From: a virus
Taxonomy: Duplodnaviria; Caudoviricetes
Direction: 5' to 3' (one strand)
Length of the DNA stretch: 31,082 bases
IMG/VR virus record: IMGVR_UViG_3300037634_000692
Coordinates: 1-31,082 of that record
Below are positions 1-12,124 of the stretch, in pieces; position 1 is the stretch's first letter; every line of letters begins with the position of its first letter. The translations under genes and the position numbers were made by a program. Under the pieces are notes generated by a model. That model had not been told where the DNA came from, did not search any database, and was given only the letters and a program-made list of their open reading frames with translations.

Positions 1-3000
1 TGTTTCTCCAGCTTTTTTATTTAATTTTTTACTAACTTTAGGAAATTGCTTTTTTAAATTACTGTAGTCATTTGCAGACGTTTGTCTAGATGTATTTAAT
101 TCATTTATACCTTTAGCGAAAGGGTCTACTAAGGCTTTCTTAAAAAACTCCATAGCCTCATCACCCTTTTTACCTCTTGGTATAAAGTTATATATCAACC
201 CCATAAAGTCTTGAGCTGAAGCAGGTATAATGCCTCTAAACTTCTTTTTACCACCTCTCATTCTAGCTTGTGCTTCTGAGAATATTTTTTTAGCCTCAAC
301 GCTAGTTGCTTGTTCCAATATATCGTTAAACTCCCCACTAATATCTTTACTAAACCGTATTCTACTACCACCAGCTACTTTTCTAGGTAATCCTTTAGCT
401 TCAGGATCTATTTCTAAAACCTTTTTTAAATCTATTCTTACTTTACCATCTACAGTTTGCGTAACGTTTTTTAAGTCAGAATTTTTTACTGGCATTCTCC
501 ATCCTATTTCTGTTATAGGATGAGTATTTCTATCTCTTACGATACCTTGGGCATCTAAATTAACCCCAGCGAACATATAAGCATATCCATCTTCCTCGTA
601 TTGACGCTCTATCATATCTCCTTTTTCCATAATTATGTCAGAGGCTGTAACACCTAATCCTGCAAACGCATTAATACCAGTCATATTACCATCCACCGCA
701 AAGTCATACGTAGCGATAGTCTCACCGTTTTTATTAAATTCTACTATTCTAAAAACGCTCCCATCTTTTCTAAATTCAGTCTTTTTAACTGTTTTACCAT
801 TAACTCTTTCTTCTACCATTGAATGTATTTCCGCCCAAGGTTTTCTAGACGGATATGTGGTTGTAACCGTGTTACCATCTTGACTAACAGTACGTACTTC
901 AACAAGGGTCTCGGATAAATCTTCGTTTATTTCTATTGATTTTGTAACCTTACCTTTTTTAATTATTATAACAGGACCCGCTGTATCATTATCCATTCTA
1001 TCCCAATACCGTCCATTAGCGAAAAAAGCTAATAGTTTTCCGTCTTGAAAGATTATTCTTTTTTGAGTTTCTCCATAACTTGTCCAACTTATTTTAGAAT
1101 CATCTGTTAATTTACCATCTTTAGATTGTGTTATACACCAAGGATTAGAATTTTTTCCCCAATGTGAATCTATAATATCTCTAACTGCCTGTTGGCCTTC
1201 TGGCGTGTTTTCTACATTATAAGTCGTAATTCCCCTTTTTTTATAAGACGCAGAGGGTGAAAATTCTTTAACATCATTTGGATCAAGAACTTTCTTTTCA
1301 ACCTTACCAGCGTAAGTTTCTATTATTTCATTAGGATTATTGTAAGAGAATAAATCTAACTTAAATCTTTCTGCCAAGTTAATAGCGTCTGTTATTTTAA
1401 ATCTATCTTCAATTAACTTTACGTTACTTGTAGCTAACCATTTAGTAGTTATTCTTTCGTATTTTCTTTTCTTATCGTTAGGAATATTTAAACTGTCTAT
1501 AAAAGTAAACATACCATCTACAGTTTGAGACACTTTTCCCTCTCTAACTAAATCAGGACGATGTTTAGATATTGTGTTTTCGTATTCTCCTCTATGTTTT
1601 TTTGAAAATTGGATTCTGCTATACACGCCCGGAGACGATAAAGATTCTACACTCTTAACACTATTAATATCACGTGCTTCTTTTATATTAGCAAGAGCAG
1701 GATTCACCAACATTCCATCCATTGTATGATCGATAGACTTACTGAACTTGATCTTAGCTTGAATAACCTTAGACTTAATATCTAATTGATCTAAAACACG
1801 CTTAACGGCTTCGACGTTTTGCATCGCATCATCTGCGAAGAACATATCATTATATCCCTCTGAAAATTTTTCTAACATCCATTCAGCTTTCGCTTCTCCA
1901 GTACTATTTCCTAACCCAGTTATATTTTCTATAGGAATATCTAATCCTTGAGACTTCAAAAACTCATGAATAGGTATTACAGCTTCGGATGGTCTAGCAG
2001 TCAATATATACGTGTCTTTCGTACCAAATTTCCCAGCTCTATCCATAGCTGTTTTAAACATAGGTCCTTGAGCTCCTTCTGTAACTACGTCAAATTCTGT
2101 AAAGTCAAACTCTCCACCTTGTTCTAATATTTTAGCTCCTTGAGTAGCAAATTCCTCAGCATCTAATCTAACTTTTTTATATCCACTAACAAAATCGTTC
2201 ATTTTATCCACTAGCTTAGAAGGCATAGCGTCTTCTTGTTTGAGCTTATCAGTGTTAACTTCCATGAATCTTTCACCAAACATTTCTTTAAATCCATTTT
2301 TATTTCCTTGAACTGCCTCGTGATTTTTTATAACAATTTTATCTAATAGAGATCTTTCTGCTCTAGCTTTATTTCTAGCTAAAGCTACATCTAAAGAAGT
2401 TTCAACGAAAGTCATACCAACATCATATCCTTTATCTTTAAATTCATTAACCAACGTTTCCATAGCTTTGATAGAACCACCAGTGCCATCTACAACAACA
2501 CCATCAGCGCTACCTTGATACTTCGTCATCTTTCTTTTAGCTATACCTCTAGCTTGATGCTGTAGCGTACCAAGTTTACTTCTTTGTTCTTTGGTAAAGT
2601 CGTTCATATTCTCTGGTAATCCAGAGTTCTTTTTTAACCACTCTAAAGATATATCAGAGTTAACTACTTTAAATCCTTGTCCTTCTAAATTTAGTTTTTT
2701 AATAACATTTCCTTTTCCGCTTCCAGCTCCACCAGCTAAGAATATAACTTTTCTATTAGGTTGTGGAGTTCCATCTGGATTAGGTATCCTAGCTCTTACT
2801 CCAGATTTAGTAGTAGCTAAAGTATCATCAAAATCCCAAGCGCTCATACCTCTTGAAGGTGTTTTGTGATTTATTAACCTAGCATTATCAACAGCTTTAC
2901 TAAACCTAAAAGCGTTGTTGATTTCGGATTTAGACGGGGTAACTTCTGCAATTTTAGAAAACTCAGTAACATATCTAGCATCAACTTCTCCTGTTAATTG

Positions 3001-6000
3001 TTTTATAATTAAATCATTAGCGGTTTCGACTGGCATTCCTTCAACACCAAAAAACTCTGCTATCGTTTGTCCTCCTTCTACTAATTTATAACTATTTAAA
3101 TCTATTCCAGCGACAGCTAATCTAACAACAGAAGACATACCATCTGGTAATTTTAATTCACCACTTAAAAGTCTAGGAACGATTTTATCAAAATAAATGT
3201 CTGGCATAGTATTCCCTAACCCAGCGGCTGCCAACATTTTATCGTGTGTTTCTAATAAAGAACCTTGCATATAAGACTTACCAACCACCCTCCAAACTGT
3301 ATCCACATTGGAAAAAGCAGCTGCAGCAAGCATAGCCTTACCAATTTGATTTTGAGGATCAGTATGTTCTTCTACAACACTCTTATTGTACACAGCGTTT
3401 CCATTTTTATCTACAGCATAAAAACTAAAAGGAGCTAAAATTCTTGTAAAAGTATTTTGATGTTTACCGGTGTCTAATAACATTTCTTCAAACATCCAAA
3501 CGTCTTGTGGAAAGTTTTGTAAATGTCCTTCCACCGCCTGAAAAAACTCAAGCAAAGTAGGTAATCTTTCTGATTGATCTTGTTTGAACTCGCTTGTATT
3601 TATTTTATCAACCGCACTTGGTTGAAGTCTTTTTCCTTTATTGTATTTTACTTGCTTTAGTTCTACTTCTCTAACACTTGTTTTATCTATTCTTGAATTA
3701 AAGTTTTTAACTGTTTTGTAAAAACCACCTTTTTCTCCACCTGTCATGGTGCTACGTATAAAAGGTCTAAATCTAGGTGCTCCTTCTAAAAATCTATTAA
3801 TAACACCATCGCCTTCTTCTCCATAGGTTCTTCCAGTTTCTTTACCATGAATCTTAAACGGAGCATTTAAATCTCTAGTAGAATATGTTTCAATAGTACC
3901 GTCAGATTTTTTTCTTTGGACTTGTTTATTTGGAACACGATCAATACCGTGTATCCAACCTAACGCTCCTAGTTTAAATATGTAAGTATCTTTAAAATTC
4001 TCTACATTATTTAACGCTAGATCTAAAGATTTTTTCTTCGTTCGACCTTCTTCACTAAACATTATTCTCGATTTACCATCAGCTATTCTTTGTATAGTCT
4101 CTATAGATTCTTGTCGTTCCATTAAGTGTTCTCTGACAGCTTGATTAGTAAGCATTTTACCTGTTTGAGATACTAATGCTTTTATTCTCGCACTAGTATT
4201 ACTATCTTTCTTATAAGTATTTTCTTTTCCTCTTTCTGTTATACCAAAAACTTCTAAAAATTCTTGGATTGAAATACCTTTGTTTTTTACTTGAATAGCT
4301 AAACCAGCCTTACTACCTGTTTTAGCAGATGTAACTCTACCAGTTTTAGTATAAAAAGCATCTAATAAAACTTTTTGAACGCCGGTAGACGTACCACCAA
4401 TTGTAGACCCTTCAGGTAGCATCTGCACCAGGGTCGCAGCATGTTTATTTATAAACATTTGGGCGTTCTTAATATCTTGTTTTGTTAAATTACCGACCTT
4501 AGGAACTATTCCAAACATTTGTTGTGTTAACTCTGGTGTTAAATCTTTTAATGTTTTGAAGTTAAGATTAGAAACGTCCATACCAGAAACTATTGCTTTA
4601 ACTTCTTTATTTATTTCAATAGCATCTGAACCTAATCTTTCTGATAGTTTTATTTTTTTACCCGTTGCTTCTTCTGTAATAGTAACGGTTTCTTCTGCGG
4701 CTATATCGCCTCTTTCAGATATATCTTCTGTAAATTCCTCACCTAATACTCTATTAGAAGCTTCTATAGCTCTTGACGGTAAGTATTTGTTTATATAAGC
4801 AGCTAATGGAACTCCTGACTCTGGTTTATACTCTTGTATTAAATCAAAAATACCTCTTGATCCTGTTTCTATTTCATCTGTTAATAGCTGTTTATCAAAT
4901 CCAGGTGCTTGCCTACGTCTCTCAACTATTTTATTAGTAATAGGCTTGAACTGTTCTATAATATCCATAGCCCCAGCAACTCCCTGTTCCTTATATATTG
5001 ATTGGACCTTATCAGAAGCTTCTTTAGAGAACATTGGAAATCTACCATCTGTATCCTGTTTAAGACCCATTTTTCTTAACGTCTTAGCCCATTGAATACT
5101 ACCGTATTTTATTGTACCACCTACTCTAGCTCCCTTCTTCATGGTTCTTTTCATCCCCTTACTCATTCTACTTTTGTCCATACTTCTATTATAGTCTCTA
5201 ACGAAGTTCATTACATCTCTACCAGTATTAAATGTAACTCTTTTACCACCTAGAGAAAACGCTCTTCTAAACATGTCCCCTATTTTAGTAAACACAGTTT
5301 CGTTAAACTTGATTTCACCAGATGCTAAAGCGTCTGAGAATAAAGTTAAAGTTTCTTCAGCTGAATTAATTTTATCTCCAGCTTGATAATCTTCAAGTCT
5401 TCTTTTGAAATTAGTGTTTTGTACACCTCTAGGATTCATATTCATTAACTGTTGCTCTAAGGCTTTTCCTACAGCTAACTTAGTGTGAGGGTTTTGATTA
5501 AAGGTTTTATTTAAAAATCTATGTAAAAATTCATGAACTGCTACGTTTGCGTTTCCGCCATCTACTTTAAGAGCAGCTTCCTTATTGATTATTATATCAG
5601 ACTCGCCGTCAATTTCTGGCGTAATAAATCCATGTACACTACCAAAATCTTGTGACATTTTATCAACATCTTCATTTAATTTATCTATATCAATACCTCT
5701 TTCATTTAAATCTTTTTTAGATAAAGTATAGTTATTCTTTTTATCTACATATACTTGTCTACCAGTTTTAGCGTCTTTAATTGTTTCAATACCGTATTGG
5801 TCTAATATGTCGTTTGTTGCTTTTTCTTTATAAACCTCAGCAGCTTCTTGTGAGCTTTCGTTTTCTATAATATTCAAACCTGGATCTACTTCCTTAGCGT
5901 GTTTTTTAACGTTTTCTAGATTCTTTTTATAAGCTTCAGTGTTTTTATCTTGATTTATAGATTCTATTACAGGACTTATTATTTCTTGTCTATCGTTTTC

Positions 6001-9000
6001 TAGTAAGTCTAATTCTCTTTGTAACTCGTCTAATTCTTTTAAAGCTTTTTGTTTATTTTTACTAGGATTTTTCTTTTTGTTTTTTATTTTTGTTTCTAAG
6101 TTCTCTATGTTTTCAGTTATTTTCTCTACTTCTTTAACTGACTCAGTATCTAAAGAGTTAATAGCCTCTACTTCCATTTCTGTCTTAATATCTTTTGCTA
6201 TCTCAACTAAATTCTTAGACGTTAAATTGTTTTCAAACTCAGTGCCTTTGAGAATATTATAAATCTCATCAAACGCATAGTAATCATTACTTATTTCTAT
6301 ATTAAGACCTTCTAGCTGACCATTATCTTTAGCAAACTGAACAGCCTCCGCGGCGTCTTTAGGGTTACTGTAACTATCCATACCTACAATATAAACTGGA
6401 TTATCACCCTTGTCTGTTGCAAATTCCCAAACCCTACTTCCCGCCCCAAACATCATCTGCATCGCGCTTATCTGAATAGTCATTTCTTCAAAAAACTTTC
6501 TATCCATACCGTCGTTCCATCTTTTTCCATCAATCCAGTTGTGAGCAGGTTGACCTATCATTTCCTCAAACATCTCCGGTAATATTCCATTCCAACTACC
6601 GGCTTCTATAAATTTTTGAAGGAACGTTGGATCAGCTGGATTTAAACCACTTTTTCTAGCCCAATTACCTAAAAACATTCTTTTTGCCCACTTTGGATTG
6701 TTTTTCAATTTTGTCCTTAAAAACTTTTGTCCAGTAGGTAAGAGTTCTCCAAATCTTTCTGTTGCAAATTCAATAAAATTATGTTTATAAGAATCCCAAA
6801 AAGCTTCCCAACCATCTTTGGTCTCATCGTATGTAGGTGTCCATTTTTTATCTCCCGGCATGTTACCATCTGCGTCTGGTACTGGAAATCCTAAATTATC
6901 AATATCAATAATCATACCGTCAGCACCCTCTGTTAACGACCAAGACATTTCTGGCGTTAAGTTTTGCTCATACCCTTTGTATATATTAGCGGCCCCACCA
7001 ACGGTAGCCATCGTAGCTGTTGTCATCAAATACTCAACAATTGTAGCTGCTCCATCTTGTATCTTAAATCCAGACGATGGCATGCCTTTCATCTTTATAT
7101 ATCTATCTAATGTTTTTTGAGACGTAAAAGCTAACCTTCCCTTTCCTCTTACTAAAAGATTACTACTTCTTCCAACTACTTTACTTAATCCTCTTGTAGC
7201 AACCATTTCAACCATAAACTTCAGGGAGCTGACAGCGCCTCCTCCTGCGTTATAAGAAGAAGAGCCCTCACTTAATCTATGTTTCATGTTCCCATCTTCA
7301 ACGTAAAACAACAAAACTTGTCTTTCGTCTATAGTCAATTCTGGATTATTATCCGGATCGTCAGTATGGAGTTTTTCTTTCTTTAATAAATCGTTTATAT
7401 AACTCTGGTGTCTACCAGCTTGAGCATCAGCAATAAGAGGCATCCATTCTCCTCTAGAAAAAGCATCCCCCATCCCATCAAAAAACTGACCAACAGCAGT
7501 ACTTTTCATAAACTCAGGACTCTTCATTATACTTCTAGCGTAATACAACTGTTTTTGTTGTGCTTCGGTTAAATCATCTTCGCCATCTAACATATCTATT
7601 ACTTCATCTGCCCACATTTTCATCGCTGTGTTAGTAGGACGTCCTTTTTTATCCAAAGAAATATGACTATAAGCTTTGTAGTAAAACTCTTCTCTTCTAG
7701 CATCGACATCTTCTTTAGACATGCCATTAGCATCATATATTTGTTCTTGAGCTGCCCAAGCTAGATTTATAGATGCCACCTGTCCTTTCCAACCTAAGGT
7801 ATGAAATTTAAATTTTTCGTTCTGAGTAAGACCACCGAAAATTTCTTTATAAGTGGCTTCTGGAATTAATTGAGTCTGCCCTTTTTTAGTTTCGTAAGCG
7901 TTTTCTACAAAGTCATCTTGAAAATCTATTGATATTTCTTCGAATTCCTTAAGTTTCTTCTCTTTCCAATCACCTAAAATTTTATCTTCTTCCTCTAAAA
8001 ATCTCTTTTGATACAACGCATTGAAGTCTGTGTATATTGCATCTAATTCTTTTTGTCTGCTTGTCTTTTGAGAGTTTTGCCATTGGCTATATTTTTTGTC
8101 AGATCTACTTTTCCATTCGTCTTTAAAATCTTGATCTGATTGAGGATCAAAAGTACCTTCTTCTATTTCTTTAAGAAGTTGTTGTTCTACCTCGTCTACT
8201 ATTTCACTTCCTTTTGATTCGTCTTGTTTTATAAACTTATTATTTACACCATCTGCTTTCAAATTCAATTCATCGACTTGATCTTTGAATTCAGTTTCTA
8301 AAGTTGTTTTAATGGTTTCTATGTGGGGTTTTATTTTGATGTCGTATTCAAGATGGTAATCTTCTTCTAATTTATCCTGTTTTACCTTCCATTCTTTTTC
8401 CATTTCTGGAAGAACTTTATTGTTAAACCAATCCGTCTCTTGTTTTTGTTTATACTCTATTATATCCATATAAAGAAGACCTTCTTCTTTAACTTCTACA
8501 GTTTCAGGAAGAGCTGCTTCTTGCTTCTCTAATTCCTCTAGATATTCCTCATAATCACTTTCGCTTTTCTTTTCTAACTCGATCGCTTGGGACCCAGCCG
8601 CTATCTCTCCACCACCTGTAACGATTTTATGTTCCTTCCCGTTTACTATAACGGTAGTGGTATTCATTCCTTCTTCATAAAGTCTATTATACTCTCTATC
8701 TAAAACATCTTCTAATATATGTTCTTTACGCATCCAGTCATTGTGTAGCGTTTTCATCTTCAGCCATTCGTCCATATGTACTTCGGGATCAAAACCAGTC
8801 GCTGGATCATATCTATATGTGTGGTTTTTACCAGCTACTTTTTTTGTAAATGTTAGTAAACCAAATTTATCAACACCTTCAATTGGAGCTTCAGAGTCAT
8901 CTTTTTTCGTGAAATCTGGATGATCTGACATTAAAACAAACACAGGTGGGGCTTTCTCAAATCCCGAATGTAAAGTACGTTGACCTCTGCTATTCTTTTT

Positions 9001-11091
9001 TCTAACTATGTAAGAGTTAGTTTGCATTTCTATGCTACCTCTTCTATCTCCTTTCTCGACATACGGTTTAAGAGAGCCAAATGAAGACGCTTGTTTTCCA
9101 GGAAGATAGATTCTTTCTCTATTAGTAGCTATATGCTCTATATACGCCGTCACGTCAACTCTCCCATGCTCATCGATAAACTTATCTCCATACTCTAGAG
9201 CGTCATCAGTTACATCTCCCGCGTAAGAGTTCCACCCACCAGCAACAACATCGAGAATCGCATCACTATCTTTGTTACTAAATCTTAAATCTGATTTATT
9301 CAAAAAAGAAACGTATCGCGCATAAACATCTGCCCACATTGCGTCAGGATCTTTATTATAAGAAGTAGCTAAATCTATAACTATCTGTCCACGATCTCCA
9401 AATCCAAAATCCATCTTATCTCCTGAATATCTAGTTCCCCCCGCCCCTCTTCTAGTAATAACTAACTCATCAGCTCCACTTAAATTATTATAATCAAAAT
9501 CATAATAATATTGTCCTTTAGCGTTTTGAGCTTCCATACTAGAATTGTAATCTACTTTATCGTTAAAGTGATTATGATATTCTTGTAATCTTTCGGATAT
9601 AAATTCTTCCATATCAGATTCACCAGAAATTTCTTCTGTTAACTGCATAAAGGTTTCGTAATCAACAGTACCACTAGTCATTCTTTTATCGTAACTAACC
9701 TCTATCTCATTGTCTTCGTCAGTATAACCTTCGTAAGGTACTTGCTTTAACCTTCTTTTCTCTTCGTTTCTTTTATATATTTCTTCTCTTTGATCTTTAT
9801 ATGGATCTTCCCAATCTTCTCGTGATTTTACTATTTCTTCTTTGGTAGGATCAACCCCCTCTTGTTCCCAAGCAAATTGAGGTGCTGTATCTCCATAACC
9901 GGATGTTACGCCGGCCTTAGCAAGACTATGTTCCATCACGTCATAATATTCCCCATTTCGTACCAAATTATTGTATTCTATTTGTGATATTTCTTCGTTT
10001 TCTAATTGTTCTTCGTATTTTGGTAATTTTTCAGCCTTACGTTTTTCTGTTTCTTTCTTACTTTTAACTTTTTCTAATTCTGTCTTTAACTGATCAACAG
10101 ATGCTTGGCTAACTCCTAATATTAATTTTTGAGAATCTCTTAATACATAAGCGTCAGGATCTACAGCTTCTATTTCATCAAACAATTCTTGTCTTTCATG
10201 TATAAGATCTAGTGTTGCTTGCAATCTCTTAGGATCTTGTATATCCGCCCAAGCACGACCCTCACGACCATCATTGAAATCGTAATCATAAATATATTTC
10301 TTAATCAACTCCTTATCCTCATCAGATATGTCAACTTTTTCAACAAACTTTTTGTCGTTTACCCAATCGTCCCACTCCTCTTCTCCGTTAATCCTACTTA
10401 AAAACAGATCATAAGTATTATCACTATGTTCCTTCTTCTTTTTTTCTAATTCTGTCTTTAACTGATCAACAGATTCTTCTTTCTCTTCTTTTAAACGTAC
10501 CGCTTTCTCTTCTTTTAAACGTACCGCTTTAGCCACGTCGTCATTCACTTCCCATGTTCCAATACCATTTCTTCCAAAATTTGCATCCCATTCTTTCGGA
10601 ATAATAGGATTTCCATTTTCGTCTAGTTTAACCTCTACATCCTCGTAGTCCTGCAACCCGTTGTTATAAATGTTAATTACTGGAACATAACCTTCTGTAT
10701 CTTTATTTTTATTGTGATTCTTTTTCCAATTCGATAAAAAATCTAGTTTTGCTCCCTCTCGCTCTAAATCCCACCATTCCCAATCATCCAAAGCTTTTAC
10801 GTTGTATTTTTCTTCAAATTCTAATTTTTCTAATTCGAGTGTAACCTTATCAATATCTTCTTTAGATCCGTCTCCTTCAAATAAATCTTCTAATTCAGTT
10901 TCTTTATCTAAAATTTGGTTTTTTATTTTAAAGTTGGCTTTTTTTTCTTCTTTATCTTCAACTTCTTCAACTTCTTCTTCAAAACCAGGATTAGCCGCGT
11001 GCCAACCAGCCTCTGTTTTCCATTGCGTACCTACTTCATGCGCTAAGGCATTGCCTTCTTTATGTTTTAAAGGTGATTTAGTTTTATTCAT
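1..11091 (-). CDS. Giant (>3697 aa, 3'-truncated) polyvalent virion/ejection protein with zincin, sigma-like, HNH-like, HAD phosphatase, P-loop kinase and WC-motif modules
   Basis: ATG at 11091-11089, one base after the TAA of the upstream gene. It reads MNKTKSPLKHKEGNALAHEVG... to ...FPKVSKKLNKKAGET at base 1. I saw no in-frame stop in manual translation, and its absence from the ORF track fits a frame with no stop in the window. Motifs: HEFLH 5521-5535, DFDDT 2821-2835, GGAGSGKG 2710-2733, ILTAR 1993-2007, FADD 1828-1839. Its position after the tail genes is typical of ejected internal proteins. Confidence 0.9.
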   Translation of the reverse strand, partial: MNKTKSPLKHKEGNALAHEVGTQWKTEAGWHAANPGFEEEVEEVEDKEEKKANFKIKNQILDKETELEDLFEGDGSKEDIDKVTLELEKLEFEEKYNVKALDDWEWWDLEREGAKLDFLSNWKKNHNKNKDTEGYVPVINIYNNGLQDYEDVEVKLDENGNPIIPKEWDANFGRNGIGTWEVNDDVAKAVRLKEEKAVRLKEEKEESVDQLKTELEKKKKEHSDNTYDLFLSRINGEEEWDDWVNDKKFVEKVDISDEDKELIKKYIYDYDFNDGREGRAWADIQDPKRLQATLDLIHERQELFDEIEAVDPDAYVLRDSQKLILGVSQASVDQLKTELEKVKSKKETEKRKAEKLPKYEEQLENEEISQIEYNNLVRNGEYYDVMEHSLAKAGVTSGYGDTAPQFAWEQEGVDPTKEEIVKSREDWEDPYKDQREEIYKRNEEKRRLKQVPYEGYTDEDNEIEVSYDKRMTSGTVDYETFMQLTEEISGESDMEEFISERLQEYHNHFNDKVDYNSSMEAQNAKGQYYYDFDYNNLSGADELVITRRGAGGTRYSGDKMDFGFGDRGQIVIDLATSYNKDPDAMWADVYARYVSFLNKSDLRFSNKDSDAILDVVAGGWNSYAGDVTDDALEYGDKFIDEHGRVDVTAYIEHIATNRERIYLPGKQASSFGSLKPYVEKGDRRGSIEMQTNSYIVRKKNSRGQRTLHSGFEKAPPVFVLMSDHPDFTKKDDSEAPIEGVDKFGLLTFTKKVAGKNHTYRYDPATGFDPEVHMDEWLKMKTLHNDWMRKEHILEDVLDREYNRLYEEGMNTTTVIVNGKEHKIVTGGGEIAAGSQAIELEKKSESDYEEYLEELEKQEAALPETVEVKEEGLLYMDIIEYKQKQETDWFNNKVLPEMEKEWKVKQDKLEEDYHLEYDIKIKPHIETIKTTLETEFKDQVDELNLKADGVNNKFIKQDESKGSEIVDEVEQQLLKEIEEGTFDPQSDQDFKDEWKSRSDKKYSQWQNSQKTSRQKELDAIYTDFNALYQKRFLEEEDKILGDWKEKKLKEFEEISIDFQDDFVENAYETKKGQTQLIPEATYKEIFGGLTQNEKFKFHTLGWKGQVASINLAWAAQEQIYDANGMSKEDVDARREEFYYKAYSHISLDKKGRPTNTAMKMWADEVIDMLDGEDDLTEAQQKQLYYARSIMKSPEFMKSTAVGQFFDGMGDAFSRGEWMPLIADAQAGRHQSYINDLLKKEKLHTDDPDNNPELTIDERQVLLFYVEDGNMKHRLSEGSSSYNAGGGAVSSLKFMVEMVATRGLSKVVGRSSNLLVRGKGRLAFTSQKTLDRYIKMKGMPSSGFKIQDGAATIVEYLMTTATMATVGGAANIYKGYEQNLTPEMSWSLTEGADGMIIDIDNLGFPVPDADGNMPGDKKWTPTYDETKDGWEAFWDSYKHNFIEFATERFGELLPTGQKFLRTKLKNNPKWAKRMFLGNWARKSGLNPADPTFLQKFIEAGSWNGILPEMFEEMIGQPAHNWIDGKRWNDGMDRKFFEEMTIQISAMQMMFGAGSRVWEFATDKGDNPVYIVGMDSYSNPKDAAEAVQFAKDNGQLEGLNIEISNDYYAFDEIYNILKGTEFENNLTSKNLVEIAKDIKTEMEVEAINSLDTESVKEVEKITENIENLETKIKNKKKNPSKNKQKALKELDELQRELDLLENDRQEIISPVIESINQDKNTEAYKKNLENVKKHAKEVDPGLNIIENESSQEAAEVYKEKATNDILDQYGIETIKDAKTGRQVYVDKKNNYTLSKKDLNERGIDIDKLNEDVDKMSQDFGSVHGFITPEIDGESDIIINKEAALKVDGGNANVAVHEFLHRFLNKTFNQNPHTKLAVGKALEQQLMNMNPRGVQNTNFKRRLEDYQAGDKINSAEETLTLFSDALASGEIKFNETVFTKIGDMFRRAFSLGGKRVTFNTGRDVMNFVRDYNRSMDKSRMSKGMKRTMKKGARVGGTIKYGSIQWAKTLRKMGLKQDTDGRFPMFSKEASDKVQSIYKEQGVAGAMDIIEQFKPITNKIVERRRQAPGFDKQLLTDEIETGSRGIFDLIQEYKPESGVPLAAYINKYLPSRAIEASNRVLGEEFTEDISERGDIAAEETVTITEEATGKKIKLSERLGSDAIEINKEVKAIVSGMDVSNLNFKTLKDLTPELTQQMFGIVPKVGNLTKQDIKNAQMFINKHAATLVQMLPEGSTIGGTSTGVQKVLLDAFYTKTGRVTSAKTGSKAGLAIQVKNKGISIQEFLEVFGITERGKENTYKKDSNTSARIKALVSQTGKMLTNQAVREHLMERQESIETIQRIADGKSRIMFSEEGRTKKKSLDLALNNVENFKDTYIFKLGALGWIHGIDRVPNKQVQRKKSDGTIETYSTRDLNAPFKIHGKETGRTYGEEGDGVINRFLEGAPRFRPFIRSTMTGGEKGGFYKTVKNFNSRIDKTSVREVELKQVKYNKGKRLQPSAVDKINTSEFKQDQSERLPTLLEFFQAVEGHLQNFPQDVWMFEEMLLDTGKHQNTFTRILAPFSFYAVDKNGNAVYNKSVVEEHTDPQNQIGKAMLAAAAFSNVDTVWRVVGKSYMQGSLLETHDKMLAAAGLGNTMPDIYFDKIVPRLLSGELKLPDGMSSVVRLAVAGIDLNSYKLVEGGQTIAEFFGVEGMPVETANDLIIKQLTGEVDARYVTEFSKIAEVTPSKSEINNAFRFSKAVDNARLINHKTPSRGMSAWDFDDTLATTKSGVRARIPNPDGTPQPNRKVIFLAGGAGSGKGNVIKKLNLEGQGFKVVNSDISLEWLKKNSGLPENMNDFTKEQRSKLGTLQHQARGIAKRKMTKYQGSADGVVVDGTGGSIKAMETLVNEFKDKGYDVGMTFVETSLDVALARNKARAERSLLDKIVIKNHEAVQGNKNGFKEMFGERFMEVNTDKLKQEDAMPSKLVDKMNDFVSGYKKVRLDAEEFATQGAKILEQGGEFDFTEFDVVTEGAQGPMFKTAMDRAGKFGTKDTYILTARPSEAVIPIHEFLKSQGLDIPIENITGLGNSTGEAKAEWMLEKFSEGYNDMFFADDAMQNVEAVKRVLDQLDIKSKVIQAKIKFSKSIDHTMDGMLVNPALANIKEARDINSVKSVESLSSPGVYSRIQFSKKHRGEYENTISKHRPDLVREGKVSQTVDGMFTFIDSLNIPNDKKRKYERITTKWLATSNVKLIEDRFKITDAINLAERFKLDLFSYNNPNEIIETYAGKVEKKVLDPNDVKEFSPSASYKKRGITTYNVENTPEGQQAVRDIIDSHWGKNSNPWCITQSKDGKLTDDSKISWTSYGETQKRIIFQDGKLLAFFANGRYWDRMDNDTAGPVIIIKKGKVTKSIEINEDLSETLVEVRTVSQDGNTVTTTYPSRKPWAEIHSMVEERVNGKTVKKTEFRKDGSVFRIVEFNKNGETIATYDFAVDGNMTGINAFAGLGVTASDIIMEKGDMIERQYEEDGYAYMFAGVNLDAQGIVRDRNTHPITEIGWRMPVKNSDLKNVTQTVDGKVRIDLKKVLEIDPEAKGLPRKVAGGSRIRFSKDISGEFNDILEQATSVEAKKIFSEAQARMRGGKKKFRGIIPASAQDFMGLIYNFIPRGKKGDEAMEFFKKALVDPFAKGINELNTSRQTSANDYSNLKKQFPKVSKKLNKKAGET
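1753..2850 (-). other. HAD-superfamily phosphatase domain, interrupted by a P-loop kinase
   Basis: All four HAD motifs occur in order: I AWDFDDTL, II YILTARP, III K in GEAKAEW, IV MFFADDAMQN. Confidence 0.85.
2180..2770 (-). other. P-loop kinase domain (zeta-toxin/AAA_33/polynucleotide-kinase-like)
   Basis: KVIFLAGGAGSGKG (Walker A), VVNSD, GVVVDGTG, GYDVGMTFVETSLDVALARNKARAER (RxxxR lid). Boundaries are approximate. Confidence 0.85.
5340..5640 (-). other. Zincin-like metallopeptidase domain within the giant ORF
   Basis: HGFITPEIDGESDIIINKEAALKVDGGNANVAVHEFLH: GF strand, IIIN strand, then the HExxH helix. A downstream EE (SAEETLT, 5353-5358) about 55 aa later is the candidate third Zn ligand. 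Confidence 0.75.
10069..10474. repeat. 34-bp exact direct repeat pair (10069-10102 and 10441-10474) encoding SVDQLKTELEK
   Basis: tttttctaattctgtctttaactgatcaacagat occurs twice, 372 bp apart and in the same frame. Confidence 0.9.
10480..10530. repeat. 24-bp tandem duplication (KAVRLKEE x2)
   Basis: tttctcttcttttaaacgtaccgc at 10480-10503 and 10504-10527. Confidence 0.9.
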
Positions 11092-11092
11092 A

Positions 11093-12124
11093 TTAAATTA
11101 CTGCTTCTGTTTGATTTGGTGCTTCTGTTTGACTTGGCGTGCTTCTTTTTTGACTTGCCACTTCTCTTTGATTTGGAGCAATTCCCTGTTGTTGCATTTT
11201 TTGATCTAAACTTAATTTCGACCTTCCTCCTACGTTGGAACTAGATGCCACTTCTCTTTGATTTGGAGCAATTCCCTGTTGTTGCATTTTTTGATCTAAA
11301 CTTAATTTCGACCTTCCTCCCACATTGGAACTAGATGCATTACCATCTCTTATAGTTTTGTAATCTGAATCAAAGGCAACTCTAAGCCTATTAGCATAAT
11401 AAACATGTAACCTAGTGTCGTTATTAGGATCAAAAGAATCTGGATGCAACAGATCATCTGTTATTTCACCAGATGTCAATGCTTCTTGATTTTCTTTCAT
11501 CCATTCTTGTAAAAAATATACCCCACCTATTTTATCAGAAACAAATATTTTCCAAGCATCCATATTAATGAGTAATTTATCAACCGCCCAATCAATATCA
11601 AAATTAGGGTGTTTAACAGCTGTTTGTCCTTGTTTTACTAAGTCTTGATGGTATTTCATATAATCAGCCTCTTCAGTACCCTTAATAACCCAGTTCTCTG
11701 TAATATCCTCAATACGTTTGACTATTGGGTTACCAGCTGGGTCGATAGCGGTAAGTAAAAGATCAAAGTTTCCATCAAAAGAAATAGTACCTCCTTCTCC
11801 AAAAAAAGCTCTTTCCCAATTAAGATCAGTATAGTTCGAGAAAAGATTTTTCCCTCCAGTTCCTCCCCCATAATTCATAGCGAATTCCTCTTTAATAGCT
11901 TTTAAATTATCCAACTTTCTAGCTATACTTTTTATGAGATCAGATATAGTCTGAGATCCTTCTTTATCTCCACTAGCAAATAACGCATCGAATTGTTTAA
12001 CTAAATTAGATATTAGTTTATTAATAACCCGCTGGTTAGCCTTACCATGTATTTCTGATGACTTAGAGTCATTGCCATAAGGTATATTTTCAAAATACTT
12101 CTTTATATTTTTATCGTCTGACAT
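11093..12124 (-). CDS. Hypothetical protein, probable internal virion/ejection protein (343 aa) with a repetitive C-terminus
   Basis: ORF track. It lies between the pilot-like gene and the giant ORF and is coupled to the latter (TAA-T-ATG). Function is inferred from position only. Confidence 0.6.
   Translation of the reverse strand: MSDDKNIKKYFENIPYGNDSKSSEIHGKANQRVINKLISNLVKQFDALFASGDKEGSQTISDLIKSIARKLDNLKAIKEEFAMNYGGGTGGKNLFSNYTDLNWERAFFGEGGTISFDGNFDLLLTAIDPAGNPIVKRIEDITENWVIKGTEEADYMKYHQDLVKQGQTAVKHPNFDIDWAVDKLLINMDAWKIFVSDKIGGVYFLQEWMKENQEALTSGEITDDLLHPDSFDPNNDTRLHVYYANRLRVAFDSDYKTIRDGNASSSNVGGRSKLSLDQKMQQQGIAPNQREVASSSNVGGRSKLSLDQKMQQQGIAPNQREVASQKRSTPSQTEAPNQTEAVI
11156..11338. repeat. 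90-bp tandem duplication (ASSSNVGGRSKLSLDQKMQQQGIAPNQREV x2)
   Basis: Units 11156-11245 and 11246-11335 are 88/90 identical, and both differences are synonymous. Confidence 0.95.

Follow-up and report, generated by a model that had tools for sequence, protein, structure and literature searches.

Peptide tags at the module seams of a giant phage protein as candidate cleavage sites for its own zincin-like domain

The last gene of the virion block in IMG/VR virus record IMGVR_UViG_3300037634_000692 (positions 1 to 31,082; this whole stretch of 31,082 nucleotides is referred to below as the window) encodes a giant polyvalent-type protein, in which a putative protease of the zincin-like (MPTase-type) kind is followed by a string of cargo modules. 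Our analysis revealed that short F-S-[K/R] peptides mark the seams between these modules, and we consider it probable that the zincin would cut at or next to these tags, freeing a sigma-like module, a polynucleotide kinase (PNK)/phosphatase and other cargo, the cleavage being predicted. This is supported by the placement of the tags at the seams, by their conservation at the peptide level, by their loss together with the zincin and by the concerted change of the tag within lineages.

An earlier note on this DNA had listed seven copies of the motif, and all of them were found at the right coordinates and in frame in the giant open reading frame (ORF) (Table 1). Their location downstream of the HEFLH protease site also holds, as FS[KE] occurs nine times after HEFLH (amino acid (aa) 1853) and not once before it. 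In 3,000 shuffles, the mean was 0.99 copies and the maximum 6, and the other 12 ORFs contain none (6,514 aa; 2.6 expected); the motif is, then, enriched against shuffled sequence, downstream of HEFLH only. The longer word SRI.FS[KE] is present three times versus 0.0003 expected, and in a look-elsewhere control, any gapped 5-letter word with three copies appeared in just 2 of 2,000 shuffles. The S-R-I that had been included in the motif turned out to be a feature of the window genome only, and is not part of the family consensus, which reads hydrophobic-[K/Q/M/R]-[F/Y/M/L]-S-[K/R]. As for the proposal that the copies mark module boundaries, it stands for six seam tags (J1, J2, J3, J4, J4b, and J5, at F2021, F2345, F2730, F3116, F3162, and F3580, respectively), whereas TEFSK is doubtful. 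Two copies that had not been listed, EKFSE (1858-1872) and KIFSE (274-288), are domain-internal: the former is a chance copy in a helix of the HAD domain, kept in 1/48 homologues, and the latter is located inside the C-terminal domain, where K[RI]FS[DA] corresponds to the domain's own conservation. Upstream of the zincin, the sequence MGDAFSR (F1211; 7453-7473, minus strand) is a possible weak tag, shared, in the form DGMFS[RK], only with the closest relatives P0001-P0003.

The conservation analysis was carried out on 52 dereplicated proteins, corresponding to the window protein plus 51 homologues from the 120 matches listed of 853. Among the matches listed, the Ser of J1 is present in 121/121 sequences and its Lys in 112/121, with M, F, or L as the most common preceding residues, and J2 shows F in 117, S in 116, and K/R in 108 of 121. 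Mapping of the 51 dereplicated homologues revealed the J1 Ser in 49/51 and FS[KRE] in 41/51 at J2, 10/24 at J3, and 44/48 at J4, whereas J4b was found in the 4/4 homologues carrying the insert, and J5 was conserved in 49/50 right-anchored and 4/4 left-anchored cases. Relatives of the P0009 type have lost J4 and retained J4b. Along the 52 proteins, 103 copies of [IVM].FS[KR] were counted on the downstream side of the zincin, where 6.0 would be expected, and a single one on the upstream side (1.4 expected), and scrambled motif controls were not enriched. As for the breakpoints of module swaps, 79 of 259 clusters were located at 15 aa or less from FS[KR] (null mean 16.6, maximum 29 in 301 draws), these clusters being non-independent and reducible to four or five seam types. 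In addition, tags stand exactly at both ends of the 464-aa insert that lies between F3116 and F3580. Insertions between domains are tagged, whereas an insertion inside a folded domain, that of a kinase into the HAD domain, shows no tag at its insertion points, with breakpoints 28-36 and 140-178 aa from the nearest tag. Lack of conservation at boundaries in homologues, which the earlier note had named as a result that would count against it, was not observed, as the tags are conserved at module-swap seams, and the recurrence of a short consensus at domain boundaries, expected of a polyprotein, was found. A profile built on the junction was discarded, as it matched the HAD domain's own KSKV strand.

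The AlphaFold2 models located J1 in predicted coil immediately ahead of the first sigma helix, with a predicted local distance difference test (pLDDT) of ~55-64, J4 at the start of a stretch with pLDDT<50 (aa 3114-3162), and J5 within another one (pLDDT<50, aa 3555-3583), so that J1, J4, J4b, and J5 all fall in low-confidence coil, and EKFSE in a helix. F2345 is near the end of the first model, and its low pLDDT is a weak indicator; likewise, alignment A2 is misaligned in its first 45 residues, and the low pLDDT values at F2711 and F2730 are uninformative. Tags buried inside folded domains would also have spoken against the proposal, and the main copies were found in predicted linkers instead.

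A search independent of the zincin led to L162, a zincin-less protein of the family, and then to the relatives of L162. Of the 506 proteins with the C-terminal domain, 448 presented HExxH, 45 were scored as zincin-less, and 13 had variant sites; proteins <1,400 aa, the 5' truncated L111, and the split ORFs L097, L104, and L119 were excluded, and L149 was relabelled as HExxxH. After dereplication, [FY]S[KR] was detected at J5 in 169/263 canonical, 7/12 variant, and 0/21 zincin-less proteins, and the counts of [KMQR][FY]S[KR] were 385 (26.9 expected), 18 (1.3), and 0 (2.3), respectively. The zincin-less proteins still exchange the middle module at the same seams, and their corresponding sigma and C-terminal helices start with no tag in front.

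Non-homologous seams also shift jointly. One clade shows ESKK/ASKR at J1, J2, and J4 and includes an SK[LI]E subclade, ESK is present at four seams of L034, and another clade is characterised by S[KQ]G; in the module-1 tree, the ASK group and the SKG group are each found on one side of a branch. This co-variation is confounded by shared ancestry, save where the zincin has moved. The zincin of L028 is of the SKG type and sits on a backbone that shares 82% identity with P0059 and 38% with L029; the J1, J2, and J4 of L028 read LSKG, FSLG, and FSKG, versus MSKT, FSKT, and FSKT in P0059. Gly is found two residues past the Ser at 57% of 30 sites that go with one zincin lineage, versus 8% of 745 sites elsewhere, and G is present at J5 in 6/8 proteins with the G-type zincin versus 9/119 of the others, which indicates that a variant of the tag accompanies a particular zincin lineage on different backbones. 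An uncoupling of zincin and tag, read from a split of the ASK zincins in a 134-row tree, was dropped, as a focused 27-row tree places the 12 of them together on one side of a branch (support 89), neither tree proving one origin of the ASK zincins. The link between tag and zincin proposed in the earlier note thus gained support of a comparative kind, from the tagless condition of the zincin-less relatives and from the tag variant that tracks a zincin lineage. The direction of these differences is the one predicted for a polyprotein whose consensus depends on its own protease (0/21 vs 169/263; G variant), but the independent events are few (p 0.25), and proteins with variant active sites retain tags. 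Taken together, these comparisons indicate that the seam tag is real and zincin-linked.

The assignment of the domain as a zincin is based on its motif, on the order of its helices and on weak profile matches. Across 70 diverse copies, H1857 and E1913 show no variation, and H1853 and E1854 are at least 90% conserved; the model shows two short strands followed by the HExxH helix and the Glu helix, in such a way that the arrangement expected for MPTases, an HExxH helix with a conserved Glu on the subsequent helix, was found. Pfam gave weak Peptidase_M78 matches in 6/70 zincins, and also weak DUF6782 and DUF3267 matches, the Atlas neighbours were of the LPD23/LPD1/ART-PolyVal/MuF_C type (LPD23 on 13-20% of members), and a PDB sequence search with the zincin produced no meaningful match. 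The candidate general-base Glu is retained in 494/495 zincins, among which variant active sites are represented by 10 EExxH, 2 QExxH, 1 HDxxH, and 1 HExxxH. The EExxH variants are relatives of the PxHELxH lineage, with the third Glu retained in the copies inspected. The zincin is often swapped and diverges much faster than its neighbouring modules (20% mean column identity, versus the stable FS[KR]), and P0009, P0014, P0016, and P0033 carry three different zincin lineages on near-identical module-1 backbones.

At the DNA level, the claim that the copies use different codons was borne out, and because the motif Ser of the window uses both TCN and AGY codons, its copies are not one DNA repeat. 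The motif Ser is encoded by TCN in 58/74 loci at J1, and by AGY in 38/51 at J2 and 41/50 at J4. Analysis of 41 loci (107 sites) revealed a synonymous identity among copies of 219/380 (0.58) within genes versus 3,988/5,962 (0.67) between genes, with a Phe and Lys codon use at the tags near the gene average. A single Ser codon family is used at all three seams in the ASK clade (AGY) and at all seams in the SKG clade (TCN), and therefore occasional seam-to-seam copying is possible. A DNA quasi-palindrome, TTTAGTAAA, was rejected as a by-product of Phe-x-Lys codons.

According to the mechanism that we propose, the FS[K/R] tags would act as peptide signals at the seams between the cargo modules, where they would be recognised and cut by the protein's own zincin-like domain (predicted catalysis), so that the sigma-like module, the PNK/phosphatase, and the optional cargo would each be released as an enzyme of its own. 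The predicted pieces are of 324, 385, 386, 46, and 418 aa, plus the C-terminal domain. F|S is favoured as the scissile bond, given the invariance of the Ser and the start of the sigma-like domain at S2022, x|F being equally possible for a zincin. Cutting would probably take place after ejection, because the N-terminal 1,800 aa are free of tags, and this part would stay whole as the ejection/anchor part. As with catalysis and post-ejection cutting, packaging and ejection are predictions from sequence, made because of the synteny and homology with virion proteins confirmed by tandem mass spectrometry (MS/MS).

Several explanations compete with such a cutting in cis. The zincin could bind the tags with no cleavage taking place, and in this way fold or latch the string of cargo modules, either to package it, to eject it in an orderly manner, or to keep the protein self-inhibited. 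This would account equally well for the co-loss and co-variation with the zincin, and would agree with the retention of tags by the EExxH/QExxH/HDxxH variants and with phage N4, whose MPTase region is described in the available text of PMC5512222 as required for encapsidation of a protein that stays uncut; nevertheless, we regard it as unlikely, in view of the nearly universal candidate catalytic Glu (494/495), of the invariance of H1857 and E1913 in the 70 diverse copies, and of the presence of five or six tags, too many for one domain simultaneously. Quite unlikely, in our view, is the participation of a different factor, either a protease of the host or some other protease or chaperone of the phage, that cuts or reads the tags while the zincin targets a host protein or peptidoglycan: other roles have been put forward for such zincins in those parts of the literature available to us, and the divergence of the zincins contrasts with the stability of FS[KR], but neither the loss of tags in zincin-less proteins nor the tag variant tracking a swapped zincin is predicted by it, and the other 12 ORFs of the window are tagless.

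We find it very unlikely that the tags are structural motifs independent of the zincin (helix N-cap, hydrophobic staple, or an unfolding/threading signal for ejection). J1, J4b, and J5 do stand immediately ahead of predicted helices, but J2 and J4 are conserved though followed by unrelated or disordered sequence, and the sigma and C-terminal helices start tagless in the zincin-less relatives. The earlier note had also offered a recognition signal for packaging or ejection; a signal of this kind independent of the zincin is rated as less likely, because the zincin-less proteins of the family manage without the tag. Finally, the location of tags at swap breakpoints and the use of one Ser codon family per clade (AGY at three seams for ASK; TCN for SKG), with possible seam-to-seam copying, could be taken to mean that the tags are relics or hot spots of cassette-shuffling DNA recombination, with no peptide role. 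This seems to us highly improbable and is largely refuted, as synonymous identity is not higher within a gene than between genes, Phe and Lys codons are near average, different seams of the main clade use different Ser codon families, and module shuffling at these seams also takes place in the tagless zincin-less proteins.

A number of observations, on the other hand, weigh against cutting by the zincin. A tag is missing in the vicinity of 180/259 breakpoints, the C-terminal extension seam among them, and [FY]S[KR] is missing at J5 in 94/263 canonical proteins, 53 of which lack even the broad form. The zincin was probably lost in two independent events (the L162 group and P0447/P0448), and a sign test on four independent pairs was not significant (median p 0.25); Fisher p-values take no account of kinship and were given no weight. 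Variants with EExxH, QExxH, or HDxxH active sites retain tags, in 7/12 cases at J5. The glycine pattern was found post hoc, and L140, L150, and L151 have the G-type zincin without G at J5. No zincin fold was listed by the structure searches, whose results were taken up by the sigma domain, and its absence does not follow from this. Moreover, the N4 virion RNA polymerase (vRNAP) has an HExxH domain, yet it is packaged unprocessed and purifies intact, according to the available text of PMC13434306.

Table 1. Features of the giant protein and carriers of variant zincin active sites
Feature	Coordinates or carriers	Strand	Remarks
Giant polyvalent-type protein	1..11091	-	At least 3,697 aa; last gene of virion block; C-terminus beyond window
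Zincin-like (MPTase-type) domain, ~aa 1815-1985	5137..5649	-	HEFLH 5521-5535; third-ligand candidate E1913 5353-5355
Tag J1 RFPMFSK (F2021)	5023..5043	-	Separates zincin from sigma-like domain
Module 1 (aa 2022-2344)	4060..5028	-	Sigma region-2-like fold at aa 2022-2119
Tag J2 SRIMFSE (F2345)	4051..4071	-	Homology to most relatives stops at aa 2346-2350
Module 2 (aa 2348-2708)	2968..4050	-	Swappable cargo; unrelated sequence instead in most homologues
TEFSK (F2711)	2953..2967	-	Doubtful secondary copy; kept in 1/8 and 3/12 mappable homologues
Tag J3 FRFSK (F2730)	2896..2910	-	Precedes HAD domain; alignments resume at aa 2720-2731
HAD phosphatase with inserted P-loop kinase (kinase ~2212-2769)	1756..2859	-	T4 PNK/phosphatase-like
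Tag J4 AKIKFSK (F3116)	1738..1758	-	Directly follows last HAD strand
Tag J4b SRIQFSK (F3162)	1600..1620	-	Closes 46-aa spacer
Optional inserted cargo (aa 3165-3575)	367..1599	-	Helical part, alpha/beta part, beta-repeats (DUF2963-like; Pfam, model)
Tag J5 SRIRFSK (F3580)	346..366	-	Precedes conserved C-terminal helical domain
Conserved C-terminal domain, start	1..345	-	Alignable in almost every homologue; complete relatives have ~650 aa
EExxH/QExxH/HDxxH variant carriers	L096, L100, L101, L103, L107, L110, L142, P0421, P0427, P0463; L109, L160; L034, L063

Regarding the cargo, the sigma-like domain aligned to SigB with a VIA Z of 7.9 over 86 residues and a root-mean-square deviation of 2.7, a Z below 8 being merely middling; the top VIA rows were mostly sigma factors, and the Foldseek sigma matches were weak. 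This domain (4735-5028, minus strand) lies right behind J1, is highly conserved, and is present even in zincin-less relatives; it is possible that it acts as an injected factor binding RNA polymerase (RNAP). Module 2 produced no Pfam match and no usable Atlas match. An EH-x-x-P word, conserved in many relatives, may reflect a resemblance to His-Me finger nucleases. The HAD/kinase unit matched the T4 PNKP with Foldseek (E 3e-6) and AAA_33 and Zeta_toxin in Pfam. The kinase is missing from most homologues, and in P0180 and P0227 a homologous kinase is placed directly after the zincin. The optional cargo is absent in most homologues, in which J4 runs directly into the C-terminal domain. In the zincin-less L162 (6287-11968, plus strand), the middle module, swapped among relatives, resembles a PD-(D/E)xK nuclease as judged by eye.

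The window is a 31-kb phage contig of ~35% GC content, with long ORFs exclusively on the minus strand. Its genes encode a terminase, a portal, virion proteins, and a protein of 2,380 aa in which a crAss muzzle domain is present, followed by the final 3,697-aa ORF, which is open at its 3' end. Preceding this ORF, a 343-aa protein (11093-12124, minus strand) has two copies of a long segment (ASSSNVGG...PNQREV) close to its C-terminus. Flavobacterial podophages (elemo, Panino, Pervagoviridae, Pachyviridae) match the portal and the capsid-type proteins with 25-51% identity among the matches listed, and the cultured ones carry a giant gene at the same position in the gene order. One of these proteins, phi18:3 gp123, has an MS/MS-based annotation as a virion protein, is syntenic, and its N-terminal part is homologous to that of the window giant protein, which is likely packed in the virion too. 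The phage group is of flavobacterial type, uncultured, and widespread, with a podophage virion block; our searches of cultured phages found no member of the giant-protein family, and searches of viral contigs and cultured phages with a single protein (zincin or C-terminal domain) gave no matches. As expected of polyvalent proteins, several unrelated domains are found in one chain (zincin-like, sigma-2-like, HAD, P-loop kinase, and swappable modules) encoded amid late/virion genes. No LPD, MPTase, or ART-PolyVal Pfam domains were detected in the giant protein, and LPD14 appeared below the cut-off in the relative P0002. Neither Pfam nor PHROG matched an RNA polymerase domain in the 3,697 aa, the C-terminal part being beyond the window and the structure models not covering the first 1,780 aa.

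If cutting at the seams is true, the tags would predict the set of enzymes delivered at infection by this uncultured flavobacterial-type phage group, which is widespread. No other domain is as common as the zincin in the polyvalent proteins of phages and plasmids, and a processing role has been proposed for it since 2017, the sites being unnamed in the text searched. The family offers exact candidate sites, natural zincin-less controls, and a natural protease-swap pair (L028 vs P0059), and the elemo phages represent a cultured system with a homologous zincin, which makes the processing question directly testable. On a broader scale, it is tempting to suggest, with slightly less than even confidence, that tailed DNA phages use a polyprotein strategy for injected cargo, in which a cis zincin reads the seam tag, tag and protease drift together (FSK, ASKR/ESK, S[KQ]G, and RxQK in elemo), and a new effector inserted between tags, the sigma-like factor included, would be delivered free; the mature products of polyvalent proteins could then be read in general from their seam tags.

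The self-processing of polyvalent proteins was already proposed in 2017. In Iyer et al. (2017; PMC5512222), MPTase autoproteolysis leading to domain release was put forward and P1 DdrB was reported as processed. The window protein shares with the phage-type polyvalent proteins described there a giant size, a late virion-gene context, unrelated enzyme modules, and HExxH with a downstream Glu, and differs in the lack of a Pfam MPTase match in its family. A term search of the main text, supplements being outside it, found no recurring cleavage-site motif, and no mention was seen there of sigma-like or PNK cargo or of the joint loss of tag and zincin (PMC5512222); our literature searches found no site motif in print either, nor, among the papers listed, any mention of an FSK, RFS, or RYS motif. 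The phi14:2 preprint considers the fused forms of crAss-like phages as likely cleaved, possibly by a zincin, and gives no site motif in the text available (bioRxiv 10.1101/2020.03.07.982082). The Crassvirales RNAP block (phi14:2 gp65 zincin, gp66, and gp67) and the window protein are both formed by giant proteins of Bacteroidota podophages, virion packing being predicted in our case; unlike in that block, no RNAP domain was detected in the window's part of the protein. Peptidoglycan was suggested as the zincin target in the phi24B preprint, with no site motif named in the available part. The N4 vRNAP gp50 is also comparable, as an ejected protein of ~3,500 aa with a beads-on-a-string organization and an HExxH domain between modules, but it stays intact, and its C-terminal part regulates the polymerase in cis (PMC13434306, available text).

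The last virion genes of Elemovirus, phi38:1 (gp101, Pervagoviridae), phi18:3 (gp123, Pachyviridae), and Panino share with the window protein the gene position and a homologous N-terminal part; at the thresholds used, no sigma-like or C-terminal domain was found in them, nor was a zincin found or such a tag seen in those of phi38:1, phi18:3, and Panino. In the elemo protein, a homologous zincin (E 6.6e-12) is followed by three R-x-Q-[KA] words, the first one 139 aa past HExxH, this pattern having been chosen post hoc. The elemo and Manatee giants (L003 17014-28098 and L001 741-12320, both on the minus strand) share a repeated AVQKQ word upstream of the zincin, possibly a second kind of seam word.

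Viral polyproteins are cut by a cis-encoded protease at a short consensus, as is the case for picornavirus 3C and potyvirus NIa. The giant protein of the window departs from them in being a predicted virion protein of a DNA phage, with a putative metalloprotease instead of a chymotrypsin-like fold and with swappable cargo. Like them, it combines one putative protease with a short tag per seam and a lineage-specific drift of the consensus, its processing being predicted.

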